Positions 3,034 through 63,282 of a stretch of DNA of 64,000 bases are shown here, piece by piece. Each line of letters starts with the position of its first letter. Positions within the stretch are counted from its first letter, which is position 1. The position numbers and the translations under genes are program-made. Source of the DNA: Tequatrovirus NIC06P2; sequence record OZ035760.1; one strand, 5' to 3'. The notes below the pieces were generated by a model. It did no database searches. It worked only from the letters and a program-made list of their open reading frames with translations, and was not told the DNA's origin.

Positions 3034-3611
3034 TCACCACAGAATTCGTTGATATTTTCCCAGTTTAACTTATTCAAGTTTTTCTTAGGAACATTAAACA
3101 CTTCAATACCTGCATTTCGCAAAATATCATCCCAACCAGGTTTATTTTTGTCGTATGTTTCGCAATAAACTAGTTTTTTAATTCCAGATTGAGCTATCGC
3201 TTTTGCGCAATCCGGACATGGAGAAAGTGTTACATACATAGTAGCACCTTCAATAGAAGAACCATTTCGTGCAGCAAACAAAATTGCATTTAGTTCAGCA
3301 TGAATTTCATTTTTAGATGACCATTCCGAGTGAGCACTACGATGTTCTTTTGCCAAGACAAAACGATCAGTTGAACCAAATGATACGCATTCAGGCTTAT
3401 GGCCTTGAATGATAGTATGTTTAGGCTTATTCAACAACCATCCTTGCTCAGCAGCATAATCACAACAGTTCACACCCCCTGCGGGTGAACCATTATACCC
3501 AGTAGAAATAATACGTCCATTCTTTTCAATTACTGCTCCTACCTTCCAGGAGCAACATTTTGATTCTTGTGATACTAAATATGCAATTTGAAGTACTGTA
3601 CTCGCTTTCAT
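3030..3611 (-). CDS. cd: dCMP deaminase (193 aa)
   Basis: Cytidine/deoxycytidylate deaminase zinc-binding signature (HAE...PCxxC) and T4 Cd length; synteny. Confidence 0.9.
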   Translation of the reverse strand: MKASTVLQIAYLVSQESKCCSWKVGAVIEKNGRIISTGYNGSPAGGVNCCDYAAEQGWLLNKPKHTIIQGHKPECVSFGSTDRFVLAKEHRSAHSEWSSKNEIHAELNAILFAARNGSSIEGATMYVTLSPCPDCAKAIAQSGIKKLVYCETYDKNKPGWDDILRNAGIEVFNVPKKNLNKLNWENINEFCGE

Positions 3612-54819: not shown

Positions 54820-55056
54820 TTAACCACCTATTTCTGTTGGCGTAAACATTGCAGCATTCTTAGTTTTCCAGTCAGCTGCATCAGAAACTACAGTAGAATA
54901 TGCTGCCTTTTCAGAAGGAAAGGTCTGATAATGAGAATCTGCAATACGATGCTCGTTAGAATAGATTTCAAACGGAACAGAAACTTCCATACCTTTAACT
55001 TCTTTGCCTTCACCTGCTGGATGAGTAAAGGTCTTGATGTTAACGAAACCGCCCAT
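54820..55056 (-). CDS. soc: small outer capsid protein Soc (78 aa)
   Basis: Conserved Soc motifs (YVNIKTF..., HYQTFPSEKAAYSTV) and late promoter upstream. Confidence 0.9.
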   Translation of the reverse strand: MGGFVNIKTFTHPAGEGKEVKGMEVSVPFEIYSNEHRIADSHYQTFPSEKAAYSTVVSDAADWKTKNAAMFTPTEIGG

Positions 55057-55087
55057 AATAAACTCCTTTATTGTTTAATTACAGGTG

Positions 55088-55095
55088 TATTTATA
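55088..55095 (-). promoter_or_regulatory. late promoter TATAAATA for soc
   Basis: Plus-strand TATTTATA is TATAAATA on the minus strand, about 32 nt upstream of the soc ATG. Confidence 0.7.
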
Positions 55096-55942
55096 AACCA
55101 TTTTCAAATCTCTTTATCATGTTTATATAATTTTCGTCAGGATAACCTAGGCTAACTGCTAACTTTCTAAAATTGACATATTTAGGTTTGTTGTTATTAA
55201 TCCATAATTCTCTAAGCTCTTTTTCATAATTCCATTTAAGTTGATTTCTGCGTGCAATTTTGCTTAAAGTTTTTCCTTTAGCTTTTAAAGCTTTTTCAGA
55301 TGACTGTTTTAATTTTTGAATATTTAAAACTTCTTCTATAGATAAATTATTTTCCTTTGAATATCTTATGCAAAAATCTTTTACTACGGCTATTAGGCAA
55401 TTTTTGTGAGTACCTAAAATTTCTGGATTATTTTCTTCAACTAAAATTCCCCAATATCTTCGATAGCGAGGCATATCCCTTGAAATCCAGTCATTATACC
55501 AAAAATCAAAGTTGGAATACATGAAAGATTTTCTTTTGCGAAGAGTATCTTGGTTTATCCATTGCTCACGTTTATCAGCCCATAACTTAATAGTAAAGTC
55601 TTTCTCTAAGTCAGAAAGCTTCTTAAATTGCGAGCTATTTACTGAGGTCATTCTCTGGAATGCATTCAGCAATCCAAATCTTCCAGTTGAACATAAGAGA
55701 TAGTGAACATATATGTGTTGATATATTGGGAGATATACTCTATTCCAAGGATATGTTTTAAAATCACTGTACTCAGGAAATGCGCATTTAGGAAGTATAT
55801 GATGGGCTTCTGTTTTAGATTTAATGTGAGTGTTTAACTTATACTTATCTATAATTTTTAAATACTCATCTAAAAGTTCCCATTGCGGGAACTTTTCTTT
55901 AAGAGCAGATTTGAAATTAATATCCATTATCTTGACGTTCAA
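55091..55942 (-). CDS. putative free-standing HNH homing endonuclease (283 aa)
   Basis: HNH-like core (TEAHHILPK...N...H) near the N-terminus, basic C-terminal half; occupies the soc-56 spacer and overlaps the 3' end of gene 56. Confidence 0.5.
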   Translation of the reverse strand: MNVKIMDINFKSALKEKFPQWELLDEYLKIIDKYKLNTHIKSKTEAHHILPKCAFPEYSDFKTYPWNRVYLPIYQHIYVHYLLCSTGRFGLLNAFQRMTSVNSSQFKKLSDLEKDFTIKLWADKREQWINQDTLRKRKSFMYSNFDFWYNDWISRDMPRYRRYWGILVEENNPEILGTHKNCLIAVVKDFCIRYSKENNLSIEEVLNIQKLKQSSEKALKAKGKTLSKIARRNQLKWNYEKELRELWINNNKPKYVNFRKLAVSLGYPDENYINMIKRFENGL

Positions 55943-56435
55943 AATTATGTTTGTTCTTCAGATAATAAAGTTTAAAGATTTCTTCTGCTGTAAGACCAAG
56001 ACCTTGGAACATGTTCAGAACAAAATGAAGAATATCAATCATTTCGAATTTAATTTCTAACTGATCCTGTGGAGACAAATCAGTAATCAAAGTTTCACGG
56101 CGTTCACCATGCTGCGACTTCCAAGGTTTCCATACAGCAGATGCATCTTTTTCGCCATTGCTCATACCGCCAAGAGAAGTTAGAAGTTCGCGGAATTCAT
56201 CATCAATATAATCTTTCTGATTACGCAGCCAATCAACAACTTCACCTGCGGTAGCCAAATCATCAGGATGACGGTTATATTCAGGTTTATCTTTAGCTAA
56301 ACGAATCTGTAAAGATTTCTGCATATCAAGCATTACCTGCAGCGGGTCTTTTTCATCACCGAGAATATCCCAATATTCATTTTGAGCTTTATCAGCGCCT
56401 TCGATCAGTTGACTACATTCGTTGAAATGTGGCAT
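55917..56435 (-). CDS. 56: dCTPase/dUTPase gp56 (172 aa)
   Basis: Matches T4 gp56 size and sequence (MazG-like NTP pyrophosphatase). Confidence 0.9.
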   Translation of the reverse strand: MPHFNECSQLIEGADKAQNEYWDILGDEKDPLQVMLDMQKSLQIRLAKDKPEYNRHPDDLATAGEVVDWLRNQKDYIDDEFRELLTSLGGMSNGEKDASAVWKPWKSQHGERRETLITDLSPQDQLEIKFEMIDILHFVLNMFQGLGLTAEEIFKLYYLKNKHNFERQDNGY

Positions 56436-56508
56436 GTTATTTTTCCTTTCAATTCATGGGTTAGTAGATTAATTATACAATAAATATATAAAGCAATAAG
56501 GAGGACAT

Positions 56509-56709
56509 ATGGTACAAAAATTAATGGCACTTGTTAATGCCATAAAAGGTAATAAGAAACGTATAGCTTTTACTATTTCTGCTATGGTAGGAATTTTACT
56601 CTGGAACTTTATTCTATCACCTGTTGCAATTGCACATGGTATTAATATTCCAGTAGTTACTCTTGATACATTTGTAGATTTAGCATTTGCTTTAGTTGGG
56701 TTGATTTAA
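56509..56709 (+). CDS. small membrane protein on the plus strand (66 aa)
   Basis: Strong AAGGAGG Shine-Dalgarno 7 nt upstream of the ATG; two hydrophobic segments; convergent with gene 61, stops overlap. Confidence 0.45.
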   Translation: MVQKLMALVNAIKGNKKRIAFTISAMVGILLWNFILSPVAIAHGINIPVVTLDTFVDLAFALVGLI

Positions 56710-57734
56710 ATCTTAGCATATTTAGATAGCCGCATTTTAGCCATCAACCCCTGTGCAATATTATTTTTCATATATTCCATAATTTGTTCAGGGGTTGCAC
56801 CTTCCTTTCTAATCATATCATTAACATCTTTTGATTTCCAGGGAGATTTATCCCAAAACATAACCCTTTCTCCTGCATCAACTAATTTAGTCATTCGTTT
56901 AATAGTGTCAGGGTGACGAGGTTCATTATCTAAAACCCACACTCGTCTATCTTTAAATGGAACAACTTCTAGGTCTAATTGACCACCCGTAATAGCTATA
57001 CCATTTTCAATAAAAAGTGAATCTATAGGTCCTTCTAGAACATATACATCACCATCTTTAACTCGTTCGACTCCATAGATTTTTGTTGCCTCAGGATAAG
57101 CTTTGATGGTGATATATTTTTGAGGAGCATCTTTCTTTAATGCGCGTCCTTGAAAAGACTCAGCTTTTCCATTAGCATTATAAATTGGAATAACAAGACG
57201 AGGCTCAGAAATTTCCTTTTTATATGTTCCCGGTGCTATGCTATTAACCAATTTAGGCCATTCGGTTGTAAACCAAAGATATTTCCATTTATCCTTTGGA
57301 ATACAACGAGCTTTTACATATTTTATAATTGGATGGTCTTCCGCCAGTTTATCTAATCTAACACATGACGGAAGAGATTTAATTATTTTCTTCTCAGGTT
57401 GTTTAGGAAGTTCTTTAGGTTTTTCTACTGGACGACTTTTACCTTTTTCTTTTCTTATTTCAAAGATATACTCACGATATAAATCAGGTTCAAACTCCTT
57501 TAAATATATTCCGATTGGTGCATGATAGTTACAGTTATAACAATGAATATTTCCTTCATTATTATCACCATAATACCATCCACGAGCTTTATTCTGGTCT
57601 GTTTTTGAATCTCCACAAACAGGGCATCTAAACCGTAATTTAAAAGTTGAACTATTATTTACTTGTGTGAATTTAGGTAAATGAGCTAATGCACGGTATG
57701 CGAACTCATTATCAATCCAAGGTATTGATGACAT
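56706..57734 (-). CDS. 61: DNA primase gp61 (342 aa)
   Basis: N-terminal zinc-ribbon (CPVCGD...CYNC) and TOPRIM region; T4 gp61 length. Confidence 0.9.
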   Translation of the reverse strand: MSSIPWIDNEFAYRALAHLPKFTQVNNSSTFKLRFRCPVCGDSKTDQNKARGWYYGDNNEGNIHCYNCNYHAPIGIYLKEFEPDLYREYIFEIRKEKGKSRPVEKPKELPKQPEKKIIKSLPSCVRLDKLAEDHPIIKYVKARCIPKDKWKYLWFTTEWPKLVNSIAPGTYKKEISEPRLVIPIYNANGKAESFQGRALKKDAPQKYITIKAYPEATKIYGVERVKDGDVYVLEGPIDSLFIENGIAITGGQLDLEVVPFKDRRVWVLDNEPRHPDTIKRMTKLVDAGERVMFWDKSPWKSKDVNDMIRKEGATPEQIMEYMKNNIAQGLMAKMRLSKYAKI

Positions 57735-57736
57735 TT

Positions 57737-57901
57737 TTACTCTTCTTTTTCTTTAGATTCCTCTTTTTTCTTTTTAGGAATCTGTTCAGGACCTTTATTT
57801 ACTACAGCGCCTGACGTTGTTCCAGTAGAGATATTTTCAGGACTACCACCTGAATCTCCAGCGACCATATCTTCTTTGATAAATTCTTTAAACGTTTTCA
57901 T
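57737..57901 (-). CDS. small ORF (54 aa; 61.1 position)
   Basis: Hand-translated MKTFKEFIKEDMVAGDSGGSPENIST...KKKEESKEKEE; stop abuts the gene 61 start. Confidence 0.4.
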   Translation of the reverse strand: MKTFKEFIKEDMVAGDSGGSPENISTGTTSGAVVNKGPEQIPKKKKEESKEKEE

Positions 57902-57913
57902 ATTAGCCTCTAA

Positions 57914-58207
57914 TTATTCACCTACCACTTCAGCGATGATATTTTTATTATTAAAGTTTTTATCACAATACAGAACGTAATTATACTGCATTACACCACC
58001 AGACTTAAGCTGTTTTTGCACTTCAGCTTTCATTTCAGGACGATCACGCTCAACGATATTCATAATATCTGCTTCAATTTGAGTTTCAACCTCAGTCTGA
58101 TCCGCAGTCATAGACCATTCGCACAAATCTTTATCATAACCTGCCATAGCAGGCTGAGCAGCACAAGAAGCTAAAGCAAAAATTGTAGCAAAGATAAATT
58201 TTTTCAT
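57914..58207 (-). CDS. sp: Spackle periplasmic protein (97 aa from MKKFIFAT; signal peptide)
   Basis: Signal peptide MKKFIFATIFALASCAAQPAMA; size and position (61.3 locus) match T4 Sp; track ORF start lies in the promoter region. Confidence 0.6.
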   Translation of the reverse strand: MKKFIFATIFALASCAAQPAMAGYDKDLCEWSMTADQTEVETQIEADIMNIVERDRPEMKAEVQKQLKSGGVMQYNYVLYCDKNFNNKNIIAEVVGE

Positions 58208-58266
58208 GATTAATCTCCTCAGTAGTTTATGTTTATATAGTATCTCAATTTCCAATAAAAGTAAAC
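58208..58266 (-). promoter_or_regulatory. candidate early promoter and leader upstream of sp
   Basis: GTTTAC at 58261-58266 (reverse complement) with A/T-rich -10 and GAGG Shine-Dalgarno. Confidence 0.45.
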
Positions 58267-58268
58267 AG

Positions 58269-58568
58269 TTATTTTAAAACTTTTGCGTAATCACATGTTA
58301 CAAACTGTTTCTCTAGCTTAACGATCTTACGAAAATACCTTTTACACTGACGAATCTGCCGCTTCGTAGGGCGAACAGCAAACTTAATAAATTCCACTCG
58401 ACCAAATGGAGGACTTTCTTCTGCTGGAATATCTAACGCCAATTCCCACGTATCGGCAATAAGTGCTTTGAATTGCGTATTTTTCCTGACGTTATACGGA
58501 GTAGGTTTAAATAAAACAATATGCATATTATCCTCGGCAATCCACTTCACATACTTTCTTGTCATCAA
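58269..58568 (-). CDS. hypothetical basic protein (99 aa; 61.4 position)
   Basis: Complete ORF. Confidence 0.5.
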   Translation of the reverse strand: MMTRKYVKWIAEDNMHIVLFKPTPYNVRKNTQFKALIADTWELALDIPAEESPPFGRVEFIKFAVRPTKRQIRQCKRYFRKIVKLEKQFVTCDYAKVLK

Positions 58569-58710
58569 TGAAAGCTTTAACTAATGCTTTATTAACATCA
58601 GCATATTGAGTAGTAGCCCATTGAACGTCATCTTTCATCATTGTGATTTCTTTAGTAAACGTGCTTTCATTCTTAAACCACCCCATAAAAACTACCTTTA
58701 CCAATTCCAT
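58528..58710 (-). CDS. dmd: Dmd antitoxin, discriminator of mRNA degradation (60 aa)
   Basis: Matches T4 Dmd (MELVKVVFMGWFKNES...) in length and sequence; position just upstream of gene 41. Confidence 0.85.
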   Translation of the reverse strand: MELVKVVFMGWFKNESTFTKEITMMKDDVQWATTQYADVNKALVKAFIDDKKVCEVDCRG

Positions 58711-58768
58711 AACAATCTCCCCATTTAACCAACAAGACTACTATACCATAGTCTTGTCAGCTTGTAAA

Positions 58769-60196
58769 CTAAAATTTTAATTCATTCGCCAAAGCATCTA
58801 ACTGAGCTCGAGTCGATTCGTTTCTTTGATAGCGATTCTGTTCAGCCTGAATCTGTTGTGAACCTGCTACCTCACTCACTTCAGTTGGAGTAGAATCTTG
58901 TTCAATTTCTACCCATTTCTGATTTCCTTTTTGAACACCCATCAAAAACTTATTCCACTTATTCTTATCACCATATCGTGATTTGATTTGCTTAATGAGT
59001 TGTTGTTCAGCAGCTGCTAGCTCCTCGGTTTCAATGACCGCAAGCATAAAATCAGCTGTTGCTGGAAGACCAGCAGATTCTGCGATATCACTCATGTTAA
59101 CATCAGAAGAGTCCCAAGCTTGTTTACCAACCTGTGCTGCAGTCCAAAGAACAGTTTCGGTTTCAACAGCCAGAGCACGCAATTCCTCTGCGATAGCTTT
59201 AACAGTTGTGTAACTATTTTCTGAATAAACTCTAATGCGGCAAGATTTACAAATACCTAGATAGTCGACAATAATGATTGTTGGAACAAAATTCTTCTTG
59301 AGCTTCAATTCGTTTAAAAGTGATCGAAATGTATTAGCGTCTGCTCCACCAGTAGGATATTGCTTAACGATTAAACGACCAAGGGTAGATTTCTCACGCC
59401 ATTTTTCCATTTTTCCTTTATATTCAGCGTAAGAAATATGTCCATCATCAATATCGTCAAGAGAAACATCGAGCATGTTAGCATCAATACGTTTAGCACA
59501 GACTTCTTCTGCCATTTCCATGGAGATATAAAGAACGTTATGACCAAGCTGCAAATAATCTGCTGCTAATGAACAAAGTCCTAATGATTTACCAACGTTA
59601 ACGCCAGCCATTAAAACGTTCAGTGTTCCAGTCTCAGCTCCGCCTTTAGTAATTTTGTTTAGAATTCTGAGTTTAAATGGAACCTTACGAGCTTTATTCA
59701 TATAAGATAGCCAACGCGCTTCATAGTCATCCATCCAATCATGACCAACGTAGCTATCAAATGAAATTGATAATGCTTGGCGCATGATGTCAGGAATAGC
59801 ACCTACATCTGGCATTTTCTTATTTCGTTTTTCCGGAGGAAGCTCAGCATTAGTTTGAATTTCGATTATTTTAGACGTAGCATTAAACATCGCCCTTTGC
59901 TGAACATATTTTTCTGTTTCTTTTATTAACCAACTGTGGTCTTCCGGAGAATCAGCCAGTTTTGAAATAAGTGTTTTTACACCAGAATATTCTGTTTCAG
60001 TAAATGAACTATTTTCTAATGCAACATTTAACGCATTAATAGATGGAACGCTATGGTACTCATTAACATGAGATTTAATTAATTTGAATGTATTTTTAGC
60101 TGGACCACTTTCAAAATATTCTGAATCCATATATGGCCAAACTTTTGAAAAATAAGCTTGATCAAATATAAGATGAGAAAGAATAATTTCTACCAC
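58769..60196 (-). CDS. 41: replicative DNA helicase gp41 (475 aa)
   Basis: DnaB-family motifs (Walker A GVNVGKS; ...IIIVDYLG...) and T4 gp41 length. Confidence 0.95.
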   Translation of the reverse strand: MVEIILSHLIFDQAYFSKVWPYMDSEYFESGPAKNTFKLIKSHVNEYHSVPSINALNVALENSSFTETEYSGVKTLISKLADSPEDHSWLIKETEKYVQQRAMFNATSKIIEIQTNAELPPEKRNKKMPDVGAIPDIMRQALSISFDSYVGHDWMDDYEARWLSYMNKARKVPFKLRILNKITKGGAETGTLNVLMAGVNVGKSLGLCSLAADYLQLGHNVLYISMEMAEEVCAKRIDANMLDVSLDDIDDGHISYAEYKGKMEKWREKSTLGRLIVKQYPTGGADANTFRSLLNELKLKKNFVPTIIIVDYLGICKSCRIRVYSENSYTTVKAIAEELRALAVETETVLWTAAQVGKQAWDSSDVNMSDIAESAGLPATADFMLAVIETEELAAAEQQLIKQIKSRYGDKNKWNKFLMGVQKGNQKWVEIEQDSTPTEVSEVAGSQQIQAEQNRYQRNESTRAQLDALANELKF

Positions 60197-60205
60197 ACTT
60201 ACTCC

Positions 60206-60568
60206 TTAAAAGAATTTAAACTTTTTCTTTGACCTTTTATTAAATGCATCTTGTAGTTGCATTGTAATACATTTTTCTACATGAGGAGCTAACTCAGCTT
60301 TTCTTTCTTGGTCAAGAACAGCAAAGTCCATTACGACTTTTCCATCAACCCAATCTAATTTTGTCACATACACAATGTGTGTAGAACCATCTTCTAGTTT
60401 AATGACAATCTCCTGGATAACATTTTCCATAGCGGATTTAATTATCTTAAGAGACTCATTAAAAAGACGTTCTTTTCTTTCTTCTTCCCCCTCCGAAGAG
60501 GGGGATTCATCGATAATTTCTAGATCTAAATCTAAATCATCTTTATTCATTAAATTCTTCCATATCAC
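60206..60568 (-). CDS. 40: gp40 head vertex assembly chaperone (120 aa)
   Basis: Size and position between uvsX and 41. Confidence 0.6.
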   Translation of the reverse strand: MIWKNLMNKDDLDLDLEIIDESPSSEGEEERKERLFNESLKIIKSAMENVIQEIVIKLEDGSTHIVYVTKLDWVDGKVVMDFAVLDQERKAELAPHVEKCITMQLQDAFNKRSKKKFKFF

Positions 60569-61724
60569 TTAACTGTTCGAGGTCAGTTTCTAAATCAGCA
60601 GCTGATTTACTTTTACTTTCTGGAGATTTAAATTTTTCAACCTTTGAGTTAATCAATTCATCAACTTCAGCTTCAACAATTTCATTACTATCAATAGCAC
60701 CTAACTGATAAGCACGTTTAATAGCATCTCGGAATGGTTGATGCTTAAATAAAGGACCCCAGAATGTAGTGCAGTTGGTATCTTTTGCACGCCAAGATTT
60801 TTCTTCGCGAATCATCTCACCGGTTTCTTCATCAAGAAATTCACGGGCATACCAGCCATTTTTAGGTTTTACTACAAATCCTAATTCTAGAGCCATATCT
60901 AACAATCCAGAATAAGGATCGATACCACCGTCAAATTTAACATCAATAAAGAATTTACTTTTTTCTTTAACGGTACGAGATTTTTCTACATTTAGAACAA
61001 ATTGATACCCCTGAAGATCAGAACCATCTTTAATTTGACGTTTACCGATAATGAATACAGTATCAGCCGAATACATTACGCCTGTACCGCCTGTCATCAC
61101 GGTTTTACTAAACATTTCAATTGTTTCAATTGTATGGTTAACCGCAACGCACGGAATATTTTTAATGCTAAAATAAGGAGTAACAATACGGAATAATGAC
61201 TTCAGTGATTTAGCACGAGTCATATCTGCCACAGATTTTTCATTCAAGGCATCTTCCGTTTCTTTCTTAGAAGCCATATTACCGATTGAGTCGATGAATA
61301 CAATAACCTTTTCACCACGCTCAATAGTTTCAAGCTGATTCACCATATCAATTTTCAGCTGTTCAACTGATTGGATTGGCGTATGAATTACTCGTTCCGG
61401 GTCAACACCCATAGACTTAAGATAAGCCGGAGTGATACCAAACTCTGAGTCATAGAACAAACAGATAGCATCAGGATACTTATTCAAATAAGCTGCTACC
61501 ATTGTCAGTGACATATTAGATTTAAAATGTTTAGAAGGCCCTGCGAAAATAGTTAAACCAGACTGCATACCACCATCAATCGCACCGCTAATTGCAATAT
61601 TAAGCATTGGAATTTTTGTACGAATTACATCCTTTTCATTAAAGAATTTAGATGTAGTCAGTTCAGCAGTCATTTTAGAAGTGGAAGCTTTAATCAAACG
61701 GGATTTTAAATCTGCAATAGACAT
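60543..61724 (-). CDS. uvsX: UvsX recombinase (RecA-like, 393 aa)
   Basis: Walker A GPSKHFKS, matches T4 UvsX; acidic C-terminal tail. Confidence 0.95.
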   Translation of the reverse strand: MSIADLKSRLIKASTSKMTAELTTSKFFNEKDVIRTKIPMLNIAISGAIDGGMQSGLTIFAGPSKHFKSNMSLTMVAAYLNKYPDAICLFYDSEFGITPAYLKSMGVDPERVIHTPIQSVEQLKIDMVNQLETIERGEKVIVFIDSIGNMASKKETEDALNEKSVADMTRAKSLKSLFRIVTPYFSIKNIPCVAVNHTIETIEMFSKTVMTGGTGVMYSADTVFIIGKRQIKDGSDLQGYQFVLNVEKSRTVKEKSKFFIDVKFDGGIDPYSGLLDMALELGFVVKPKNGWYAREFLDEETGEMIREEKSWRAKDTNCTTFWGPLFKHQPFRDAIKRAYQLGAIDSNEIVEAEVDELINSKVEKFKSPESKSKSAADLETDLEQLSDMEEFNE

Positions 61725-61801: not shown

Positions 61802-62644
61802 TTAATCAACTGCTATTGGATGAATAGCATTAAACTTATGAAATGCTTCTGATTTTTCTTTACGAGAAACACACATGCGAAGAACCTTTAATGGCTCGTC
61901 TTCTTCACCCAACGATTTTCGTTTTTCAATATTAGAAGTTTTCCAACGAGCTTGCTCTGGAAACTCTCTATTGATTTGCTCAAGCGCTCTATTATGTTTA
62001 GAATTACTGCGAATTGAACTGCACCCGCCAGGAGCTTGTGCTTTTCCAGATACAACCAGATATTTGAACAAGGCCAAATGCGGATAACCTTGATTAATTA
62101 AATTGAGAAATGCATACATATCTTCGCATAAATCAATTTTTCCATACCCAATTTGTTCTGTGGTAAGTTTTCCGAGGTCATACCATGTATTCGTGAATCC
62201 GTATGAATTTTCACGATAATTACCCCAAGATGAAGTAATTTTAAAAATTGGTAGACGAGCATGACCGTGATAATACCCGCAATCCATGGCATCTTCAACG
62301 TATTGAATCAATTCATAGAACTGTTCACGAGTTAATTGATTAATTTTATCTACACATCGGCGATCATCTCTTTTTCGCATTGAACTCATACGAATAGTAG
62401 TATCATCGTCAATCATCCAGATTCGTTGACCTGCATACATATCAGTAATTGCTTTACGAGTACCGGCAATTCCGTTTACATCATCAGGAATAGTTACAAT
62501 TTTAGCTTTAGACCCATAGGCATCATAATAAGCTTTTTCTTCATGTTCACGTACTACGATATGAGGTTCATAATCAGTCGGAAACATATCAAGGGCAGAA
62601 ACTGCCCCTACACGTTGATAGCTCGGAATTACGAATTGAATCAT
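61802..62644 (-). CDS. putative GT-A fold glycosyltransferase at the T4 beta-gt position (280 aa)
   Basis: DxD-type motif (WMIDDDTT); sits between uvsX and gene 42 where T4 carries beta-gt but does not resemble it; consistent with a T2/T6-type enzyme. Confidence 0.55.
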   Translation of the reverse strand: MIQFVIPSYQRVGAVSALDMFPTDYEPHIVVREHEEKAYYDAYGSKAKIVTIPDDVNGIAGTRKAITDMYAGQRIWMIDDDTTIRMSSMRKRDDRRCVDKINQLTREQFYELIQYVEDAMDCGYYHGHARLPIFKITSSWGNYRENSYGFTNTWYDLGKLTTEQIGYGKIDLCEDMYAFLNLINQGYPHLALFKYLVVSGKAQAPGGCSSIRSNSKHNRALEQINREFPEQARWKTSNIEKRKSLGEEDEPLKVLRMCVSRKEKSEAFHKFNAIHPIAVD

Positions 62645-63282
62645 TTAAGTGCCTTACATTTGTCAAAATGGTATCTTGTCATATTTGGCCCACGTCCTTT
62701 TAGTCCGCAATGCGGACATATTTTTTCTATCAAATTATGAGGTTTTCCTTTACGATTTTTAGACATCGTTTCTTTAATTATTTTAGCTTTTTCTACGCCA
62801 AAAATTTCTTCATAAGTTTTACCAGAATTTTCCTTGGCTCGATTTATAATTCCATATGCCTGCTCATTTTTACCATACATTGGATTACCTTCGCCTTTCA
62901 TTCTTTTAGAATGATCAGGACGCTTGATTCCACGAAAGGCATTTCCGCACTTATATCTTTCTTCTGGAGATAGTTTTTTACCGTACATTCCATTTAATTT
63001 GCCTGGAAAACTTCCTCCCCATGCTTCATTCTTTAAATTATATGAATCCGGACAATTAGCAGCATCTAAACAAGTTAAAATAATTTCTTCAACCTGTCTA
63101 AACATTGGTCCTTCATATAATATTTCTTTATTAAAGAATTTTATTCCATATTTCTTTTTAGCATGTTGCCAAACTACACCCGAACCATCATAATTCGGGT
63201 TGTGACCATCATGACTTCCTATATACCACTTTTTAGTTTTAGGATGTTTATACTTATAAACATGTGGCACATTTACTTCCAT
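62641..63282 (-). CDS. GIY-YIG homing endonuclease, Seg-like (213 aa)
   Basis: N-terminal GIY-YIG motif (HVYKYKH...KKWYIGSHDG), NUMOD3-like repeats (NGMYGKKLSPEER; GEGNPMYGKNEQ), C-terminal CPHCG zinc finger. Confidence 0.7.
   Translation of the reverse strand: MEVNVPHVYKYKHPKTKKWYIGSHDGHNPNYDGSGVVWQHAKKKYGIKFFNKEILYEGPMFRQVEEIILTCLDAANCPDSYNLKNEAWGGSFPGKLNGMYGKKLSPEERYKCGNAFRGIKRPDHSKRMKGEGNPMYGKNEQAYGIINRAKENSGKTYEEIFGVEKAKIIKETMSKNRKGKPHNLIEKICPHCGLKGRGPNMTRYHFDKCKALK

Follow-up and report, generated by a model that had tools for sequence, protein, structure and literature searches.

Gene content of the 61-41 interval

The window analysed here is a segment of 64,000 nucleotides from a Tequatrovirus (T4-like) genome. 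Exactly four genes lie between its primase gene 61 and its helicase gene 41, all of them on the minus strand and in the order 41-dmd-tifA-sp-61.1-61, as found in the ORF list, by alignment with T4, and by tblastn with T4 proteins (Table 1). The 41-61 region of T4 has been named the 'anti-TA island', in which Dmd acts against RnlA, TifA (gp61.4) against ToxN, and AdfA (gp61.2) against DarT (PMC9391042). The window carries such a T-even island, with small early genes including dmd and tifA between helicase and primase. Two of the three anti-toxin genes of T4 (dmd, tifA, and adfA) are present and adfA is missing. The window thus represents the minimal four-gene form of the T-even anti-TA island, the smallest one known, without 61.2/adfA (anti-DarT factor A).

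A preliminary description of this DNA had counted four small ORFs between primase and helicase, had given five for T4, and had suggested that at least one may be missing. Each of these points stands. The four are 61.1, sp, 61.4, and dmd, the T4 set is 61.1, 61.2, sp, 61.4, and dmd, and 61.2 is cleanly absent without replacement, leaving 12 nt. The alignment with T4 that it had proposed as a check gives a one-to-one match for four genes, but the fifth, 61.2, has no counterpart. Its placement of the 61-41 spacer at 55917-58710 proved too wide because gene 56, a plus-strand ORF of 66 aa, and the whole primase gene are also included; the spacer proper spans 57735-58768. The observation as first stated is therefore partly confirmed, and its interpretation is supported: the link it drew between the composition of the locus and counter-defence content is right and has already been published for the 'anti-TA island' (PMC9391042).

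Table 1. Features in and around the interval between genes 41 and 61 of the window, in the order of minus-strand reading
Feature	Position	Strand	Description
Gene 41, replicative helicase, upstream island boundary	58769..60196	-	475 aa, 99.6% aa identity to T4 gp41
Early-type promoter-like site upstream of dmd	58740..58768	-	TTTACA-17-TATAGT with TG extension, 10/12 consensus
dmd (61.5), antitoxin-like inhibitor of RnlA/LsoA (predicted)	58528..58710	-	60 aa, Pfam PF17587, PDB 5hy3_B
tifA (61.4), ToxN inhibitory factor A	58269..58526	-	85 aa, DUF7279, T4 homology
Promoter-like sequence in the 61-nt tifA-sp intergenic region	58237..58265	-	TTTACT-17-TACTAT
sp (61.3), Spackle, periplasmic inhibitor of gp5 tail lysozyme, superinfection exclusion	57914..58207	-	97 aa, PF25676
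Empty cargo slot, 12-nt linker from sp stop to 61.1 ATG	57902..57913	-	TTAGAGGCTAAT, alignment
Gene 61.1, acidic/lysine-rich protein	57737..57901	-	54 aa, 96.3% identity to T4 gp61.1
Gene 61, DNA primase, downstream island boundary	56706..57734	-	342 aa, 99.4% identity to T4 gp61
66-aa ORF, outside the 61-41 spacer	56509-56709	+	
Gene 56, outside the 61-41 spacer	55917-56435		

Encoded proteins and promoter-like sites

Dmd aligns over its full length with Pfam PF17587 (E 1e-44, residues 1-60 against profile 1-60) and matches 5hy3_B, 'Antitoxin Dmd', in the PDB (E 3e-36). The protein is 96.7% identical to T4 Dmd in amino acid sequence, with the two substitutions M17T and E38D, and inhibition of RnlA/LsoA is predicted for it from the activity of T4 Dmd (PMC9391042). 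The ATG of tifA lies at position 58526, one nt past the dmd stop, the same spacing as in T4. Its 85-aa product has a pI of 10.0 and a positively charged central cluster, RPTKRQIRQCKRYFRK. It matches Pfam DUF7279 (E 8e-20), shares 96.5% aa identity with T4 gp61.4, and differs from T2 TifA in one residue; no solved TifA structure was found among the PDB matches, even at E<=1. The preliminary description had listed this gene as a basic ORF of 99 aa; the gene and its basic nature are right, the length is not. The 99-aa reading, which starts at a TTG (58269-58568), extends the gene mechanically too far; it was discarded since it runs 41 nt into dmd, whereas the ATG identical to that of T4 sits just after the dmd stop. 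Binding and neutralisation of ToxN have been shown for the TifA homologues of T4, T2, T6, and RB69 (PMC9391042), and near-identity to homologues suggests that TifA of the window may neutralise ToxN as well.

Spackle had been described as a 97-aa protein with a signal peptide, which agrees with its matches to PF25676 and to PDB entries. The N-terminal signal peptide is MKKFIFATIFALASCAAQPAMA, and both the 97-aa precursor and the mature domain are recognisable (T4_Spackle, E 1e-44). The PDB entries 6x6o and 7cn6, both 'Protein spackle', match the sp product (6x6o_A, E 8e-62), and residue 1 of the 7cn6_A chain aligns at query residue 23, which is consistent with signal-peptide cleavage after AMA. 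A single substitution (K53E) separates the protein from T4 Spackle (99.0% aa identity). Spackle and gp5 are treated in PMC7677548 and PMC7650644. The 61.1 product, encoded right upstream of gene 61, matches phrog_1823 over its full length (E 2e-33), and a Pfam search found no family for it. The primase ATG begins 2 nt past the 61.1 stop.

Two putative promoters were noted. The site before dmd is almost identical in the T4 alignment, and an early promoter driving dmd-tifA has been described (PMC9391042). The site between tifA and sp was read directly from the sequence. Its 8/12 consensus is under the threshold of the promoter scan; it is conserved in the alignment with T4, T2, and Kha5h. Both are candidate promoters on sequence grounds.

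The slot between sp and 61.1

No gene of about 208 aa, as expected for adfA, lies directly downstream of sp in the window, and the alignment has a clean 615-nt gap at sp/61.1 relative to T4. The sp stop and the 61.1 ATG are 12 nt apart in the window, against 627 nt in T4, 370 nt in both T2 and HY03, and 985 nt in Kha5h. The contents of the slot vary accordingly: T4 has adfA there, T2/HY03 have an unrelated gene of 118 aa, Kha5h has both, and the window has none. Tblastn searches of the whole 64-kb window gave no match for T4 AdfA (E<=1e-3) and none for the 118-aa slot protein, and no remnant of a 47-nt cassette end was found in the window. Reading frames and ribosome-binding sites (RBS) are intact on both sides of the empty junction. 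The junction motif TAGAGGCTAATATG occurs only once in the 64 kb, so this 14-nt motif is not a generic translation-initiation motif of the phage, yet chance would also give one copy.

Occupied slots carry short repeated sequences. In HY03, a perfect 14-nt direct repeat, TAGAGGTTAATATG, stands on both sides of the 118-aa gene. Additionally, adfA and the 118-aa gene have their last 47 nt in common, encoding SIDDQIFNAFMNRG. The empty junction of BP32, TTAGAGGTTAAT, is the exact product expected from recombination between the HY03 repeats. A single T-to-C change in the linker sets the window, together with six other phages whose slot is empty, apart from BP32. The linker of the window is found in CHD94UKE2, G3F7, G3F10, KNP1, RB3, RB5, RB6, RB7, RB9, RB10, F13076, SA20RB, and IsaacDaniel, and its C is absent from the occupied alleles examined. 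The 14-nt repeat is short. An ancestral empty site with inserted cassettes bearing their own 3' RBS motif would give the same pattern.

Of 60 evenly sampled records, about 5 matched the junction in one piece, as did 23 of the top 30. Extrapolation gives roughly 30-35 of 406 records with an empty junction, about 7-8%, these frequencies being estimates from ranked and evenly spaced samples of records. The carriers include RB3, RB5, RB6, RB7, RB9, RB10, KNP1, KNP5, Sfk20, and CHD94UKE2. The arrangement is ordinary because classic phages such as RB3 also have it. The empty slot without adfA is thus a recurrent natural haplotype and no peculiarity of the window phage.

Origin of the empty slot

The empty state is most likely derived and would have arisen by recombination between the short direct repeats that bound the cassettes. 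Such recombination of the 14-nt repeats would leave sp-TAA-TTAGAGGyTAAT-ATG-61.1, with the ribosome-binding site of 61.1 (GAGG) intact. The event was probably a deletion rather than an insertion, judging from the distribution of adfA. It is unlikely that the junction was empty ancestrally and that adfA and the 118-aa gene were inserted later elsewhere, each with its own 3' end and RBS motif. The repeats fit insertion as well as deletion, the C-variant linker recurs in empty-slot phages whose flanks differ, a hint that the allele is old, and the 47-nt 3' end common to two otherwise unrelated genes resembles a cassette joint. However, adfA stands immediately after sp in the outgroup RB69, which belongs to another genus (Mosigvirus), its homologues, which fall into two divergence classes, are present in 487 phage records (255 of them at 60-80% identity), and empty slots are a minority. 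A deletion in a single clade was rejected, as the empty-slot phages do not form one clade in flanking-sequence trees. Trees built on sp, or on 61.1 together with the 5' end of the primase gene, place them among occupied ones, which argues for mosaic recombination or spread and/or several events.

An artefact, either an assembly collapse or a laboratory deletion mutant rather than a natural haplotype, is extremely improbable. T4 does readily drop non-essential genes through microhomology recombination under laboratory selection (PMC9391042), but the identical 12-nt junction recurs in many phages isolated and sequenced independently from various countries and hosts, such as RB3-RB10, KNP1 (India), SA20RB (South Africa), IsaacDaniel (USA, Hafnia), and F13076 (China, Salmonella); the intact frames and RBS on either side also speak against it.

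Functional implications

In the mechanism proposed here, the early promoter after gene 41 would drive dmd-tifA, Dmd would bind and block the RNase toxins RnlA/LsoA, and TifA would do likewise with the ToxN RNase. The second promoter-like site would serve sp-61.1-61, and Spackle would be exported to the periplasm, inhibiting the gp5 tail lysozyme of superinfecting phages. AdfA, the cargo of the T4 slot, binds the DarT1 ADP-ribosyltransferase. The window phage would therefore retain its anti-RnlA/LsoA, anti-ToxN, and exclusion functions. This overall reading, a minimal island with a polymorphic slot emptied through repeats and with those functions kept, is considered highly probable.

The missing adfA is of little predictive value because adfA-deleted T4 and the naturally adfA-less T2 both stay DarTG1-resistant through AdfN (gp30.3), the main anti-DarTG1 factor (PMC11257639). 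Moreover, adfA is carried by only 13 of 17 Tevenvirinae (PMC11257639). The window starts inside 30.6, and adfN (30.3) would lie just beyond its start. In all eight contigs encoding an identical gp30.8, a Phage_30_3 gene of 152 aa follows at a distance of a few hundred nt, these contigs being at most 97.8% identical to the window. If its adfN is intact, the window phage should not be DarTG1-sensitive. A relocation or substitution of adfA, with an analogous anti-DarT function elsewhere in the genome outside the slot, is nevertheless very unlikely as the explanation of its absence. AdfN is such a second anti-DarTG1 factor, about 57 kb away on the map (PMC11257639), and relatives carry adfN just beyond the point at which the window starts. 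However, AdfN is a separate conserved gene that T4 has beside adfA, not a relocated adfA, and the 64 kb examined, of a genome with about 100 kb more, hold no adfA-like sequence.

For annotators, the outcome is a phage with intact dmd, tifA, and sp, without adfA, and with the tifA gene model corrected to 85 aa. The host-range consequence of adfA loss is probably small because, in published experiments, T4 and T2 resist DarTG1 without the gene. The functions of the island and the dispensability of adfA are already known biology. The modest addition is that short direct repeats flank the cargo genes of the slot and may explain their gain and loss. A bolder joint reading, which we regard as doubtful, is that the sp/61.1 junction is a dedicated cassette-exchange site, that the 118-aa gene is anti-defence, and that adfA loss is host-selected. 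The RBS-containing 14-nt repeat and the shared 47-nt 3' end would then be joints by which cargo is gained, stacked, and dropped. If so, the 118-aa gene alternating with adfA would encode an anti-defence factor yet to be characterised, and selection would favour losing adfA on hosts in which AdfA brings no benefit or a defence system senses it.

Comparison with known systems

Among deposited phages, the best matches to the window reach about 96-97.6% identity over 5-24 kb, with indels. The 41-61 interval of T4 agrees with that of the window in position, strand, gene order, promoters, and overlaps, and the proteins of the four common genes share 96-99% identity. T4 differs in having adfA (627 bp, 208 aa), whose start overlaps the sp stop (TAATG), whereas in the window sp is joined to 61.1 directly by the 12 nt.

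The minimal four-gene island of the window is also found in vB_EcoM-CHD94UKE2, G3F7, G3F10, and KNP1. CHD94UKE2 aligns with window positions 57600-58400 (801 bp) in one piece at 99.4%, with identical Sp and gp61.1 proteins. By gene 56, it has a 224-aa homing-endonuclease gene of the size and position of T4 segF, whereas the window has an HNH endonuclease there. Other relatives carry a gene between tifA and sp that the window does not have, of 84 aa in RB3, BP32, and F13076 and of 60 aa in IsaacDaniel and SA20RB.

T2/HY03 are naturally adfA-less like the window and have the same dmd-tifA-sp and 61.1-61 flanks. Their slot holds the unrelated 118-aa gene ('61.2' in the T2 annotation) with TAGAGGTTA(A/G)TATG repeats around it; the window has neither slot gene. 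RB69 resembles the window in its dmd-tifA pair, in 61.1 before 61, in the lack of dam, and in a plus-strand ORF (ORF029w) adjoining the primase gene. Its 41-61 interval, however, holds eleven genes against four in the window, the extras being two ORFs ahead of dmd, the genes imm and imm.1 in the tifA-sp interval, adfA, and another two ORFs, and its gp61.1 has 92 aa against 54 aa in the window.

Gene content of the interval between genes 41 and 61

The window carries DNA of a T4-like phage (Tequatrovirus), and 824 phage records were matched by megablast with positions 55000-60300 as the query. The best matches, Kha5h, Pu-Krd-SF3/4 and fPS-2, share about 97.5% identity over this query, always with additional DNA relative to the window, and identity reached about 96% at best with larger queries. 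Thus, the phage is a mosaic T-even phage differing from every deposited genome. Between genes 41 and 61, four small ORFs are the sole credible genes, as the preliminary description had stated, and the five ORFs that it gave for T4 are indeed found in NC_000866, namely 61.1 (54 aa), 61.2 (208 aa), sp (97 aa), 61.4 (85 aa) and dmd (60 aa). Its suspicion that at least one T4 ORF was missing was borne out by the alignment with T4 61.1-61.5 that it had proposed, in which the four genes have counterparts and 61.2 has none. The extent it gave to the locus (55917-58710) was too wide, because gene 56, a + strand ORF and the primase gene also lie inside. Its 99-aa basic ORF (58269-58568, TTG start) corresponds to a real gene of smaller size. 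The longer reading is a mechanical extension overlapping dmd and was rejected; the ATG lies one nt past the dmd stop, exactly as in T4 61.4, according to the coding-strand sequence and the alignment to T4, T2, Kha5h and CHD94UKE2.

Features in and around the 41-61 interval (window coordinates; identities from tblastn)
Feature	Position	Strand	Remarks
uvsX	60543-61724	-
gene 40	between uvsX and 41	-
gene 41, helicase	58769-60196	-	99.6% identity to T4 gp41, full length
dmd	58528-58710	-	60 aa
tifA (61.4)	58269-58526	-	85 aa, ATG at 58526
sp	57914-58207	-	97 aa
61.1	57737-57901	-	54 aa
gene 61, primase	56706-57734	-	99.4% identity to T4 gp61, full length
66-aa ORF	56509-56709	+
gene 56, dCTPase	55917-56435	-
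HNH-type homing endonuclease ORF	55091-55942		283 aa
seg-like homing endonuclease	62641-63282		213 aa

The island proteins and their expression signals

All four proteins are close to those of T4 over their full length (tblastn): Dmd with 96.7% identity (M17T, E38D), gp61.4 with 96.5% (V30A, E82K, I83V; V30A alone relative to T2), Sp with 99.0% (K53E) and gp61.1 with 96.3% (N20S, I26T). Dmd, Sp and gp61.4 belong to Pfam PF17587 (E 1e-44), T4_Spackle PF25676 (E 1e-44) and DUF7279 (E 8e-20), respectively, and the sole family assignment of gp61.1 is a PHROG without known function. Structures have been solved for Spackle (6x6o, 7cn6) and Dmd (5hy3); a search of solved structures with gp61.4 gave no match. 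From its sequence, the Sp signal peptide would be cut after an AMA site, consistent with the 7cn6 chain alignment, which starts at residue 23 of the window protein. In T4, 61.4 is tifA, a ToxN toxin inhibitor, 61.2 is adfA, anti-DarT factor A, and an 'anti-TA island' has been proposed for the region with dmd (anti-RnlA), tifA and adfA (PMC9391042). Superinfection exclusion is mediated by Spackle, an inhibitor of the lysozyme domain in the gp5 tail spike (PMC7677548, PMC7650644).

A second PHROG family, phrog_2086, aligns in its C-terminal part (positions 108-154 of 156) with residues 7-53 of gp61.1 (E 2e-16), and gp61.1 of RB69 has 92 aa (2318-2596 in its record, L021); hence the T4-type 54-aa protein may correspond to the conserved C-terminal module of a protein that is longer in other phages. 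The T2 record (LC348380.1; L004, about 3188-3200) reads AATAAAAATAATCATCG near the 3' end of sp, with one additional A relative to the AATAAAAATATCATCG of T4, the window and other phages, so that the frame is shifted over the last codons; sp is annotated there as 92 aa.

Between 41 and dmd (58768-58740), the sequence strongly matches an early-type promoter (TTTACA-17-TATAGT with TG). The 61-nt spacer from tifA to sp has a weaker match (TTTACT-17-TACTAT), which is conserved in T4. Promoter roles at both sites are predicted.

The sp/61.1 slot

In T4, 61.2 overlaps the sp stop with its start (TAATG) and ends a single nt short of the 61.1 ATG. The alignment has a clean gap at 61.2 in the window, where just 12 nt (TTAGAGGCTAAT, 57902-57913) connect the sp stop to the ATG of 61.1. 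This linker keeps GAGG five nt upstream of the ATG, and 61.1 should thus be translated normally. No tblastn match within the 64 kb was obtained with T4 gp61.2 or with the unrelated 118-aa protein that occupies the slot in other phages, and no remnant of the shared 3' end of their genes is present in the window.

Four slot states emerged from a comparison of representative phages, measured from the sp stop to the 61.1 ATG: adfA only (T4, 627 nt), the 118-aa gene only (T2 and HY03, 370 nt), adfA followed by the 118-aa gene (Kha5h, 985 nt), and empty (12 nt; the window, CHD94UKE2, RB3, KNP1, IsaacDaniel, SA20RB, F13076 and BP32). The last 47 nt are common to adfA and the 118-aa gene, encode SIDDQIFNAFMNRG and take in the RBS and start ATG of the gene that follows. 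Moreover, HY03 carries a perfect 14-nt direct repeat, TAGAGGTTAATATG, on both sides of the 118-aa gene. Recombination between these repeats would give precisely the BP32 junction (TTAGAGGTTAAT), which the window and six other empty-slot phages share except for a single T-to-C substitution.

With a 100-nt query that has the empty junction at its centre, 406 records were returned; the match was in one piece for 23 of the top 30 and for 5 of 60 taken at even spacing. From these samples, roughly 30-35 records (about 7-8%) are estimated to have the empty junction. It occurs in the classic phages RB3, RB5, RB6, RB7, RB9 and RB10.

Origin of the empty state

The empty state would have been produced by deletion, through recombination between short direct repeats. 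Deletion is favoured since rearrangement via short microhomologies is documented in T4 (PMC9391042), the outgroup RB69 (Mosigvirus) also has adfA directly after sp, and there are 487 records with adfA homologues, of two divergence classes, and 333 with the 118-aa gene. Insertion of cargo into an ancestrally empty site is a possible, less favoured origin. Empty and occupied phages are intermixed in trees of sp and of 61.1 with the primase 5' end, which indicates that the empty allele spread mosaically and/or arose more than once.

Consequences for counter-defence

The preliminary reading of the locus as informative about counter-defence is supported and right in principle, but little can be predicted from the missing gene. 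T4 with adfA deleted is still DarTG1-resistant, T2 is resistant while naturally without adfA, and adfA occurs in only 13 of 17 Tevenvirinae tested; AdfN (gp30.3), a NADAR ADP-ribosylglycohydrolase, is both necessary and sufficient (PMC11257639). As the window starts inside gene 30.6, gene 30.3 falls just outside it. An identical gp30.8 was found in eight contigs, all eight with a 152-aa Phage_30_3 gene a few hundred nt on. By analogy with these relatives, the phage is predicted to resist DarTG1 through AdfN. Additionally, we predict that anti-RnlA/LsoA and anti-ToxN functions are retained and that superinfecting T-even phages are excluded through Spackle.

Neighbouring mosaic regions

T4 has dam between 61 and 56, whereas T4 Dam had no tblastn match anywhere in the window, which carries the + strand 66-aa ORF instead (56436-56709), an arrangement shared with Kha5h, CHD94UKE2 and RB69. 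This ORF is hydrophobic (phrog_2024), resembles RB69ORF029w/'dam.1' and converges on the primase gene with a 4-nt overlap at its 3' end; a terminator-like hairpin lies at 56543-56524. The HNH ORF (phrog_655, E 1e-33; phrog_12434, 'HNH endonuclease') overlaps the final 26 nt of gene 56 and stands where T4 has the GIY-YIG endonuclease segF. Identity to T4 is only 76% for gene 56 and 47% for soc, against 99-100% for 61, 41 and 40, and the area resembles a local homing/marker-exclusion hotspot.

UvsX shares only 89.8% identity with its T4 counterpart and the adjoining gp40 and gp41 are 100% and 99.6% identical, which marks a mosaic boundary. Downstream of uvsX (61802-63282), T4 has segA and then beta-gt, whereas the window has a 280-aa beta-glucosyl-HMC-alpha-glucosyltransferase (phrog_842, E 3e-89), which we take to be the T2/T6 type of enzyme, followed by the seg-like endonuclease (phrog_314, E 2e-31). 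This suggests a T2/T6-like pattern of DNA glucosylation.

Comparison with other islands

Many empty-junction phages carry a gene in a second variable slot, located between tifA and sp. RB3, BP32 and F13076 have an 84-aa gene there (records L014, L018 and L019, each 1308-1562), whose annotation varies between 'ComC-alpha' and 'goF'. IsaacDaniel and SA20RB have a 60-aa gene (record L016, 1354-1536) and RB69 has imm with imm.1 (L021, 4012-4690), whereas the slot is empty in T4, T2, KNP1 and the window. With both slots empty, the window has the minimal four-gene form of the island. All that is mildly new is the cassette structure of the sp/61.1 slot, with its bounding repeats. The composition itself is ordinary and represents a minority haplotype already known for this published and well-characterised island: CHD94UKE2, G3F7, G3F10 and KNP1 share the minimal four-gene form, whereas the interval holds eleven genes in RB69.
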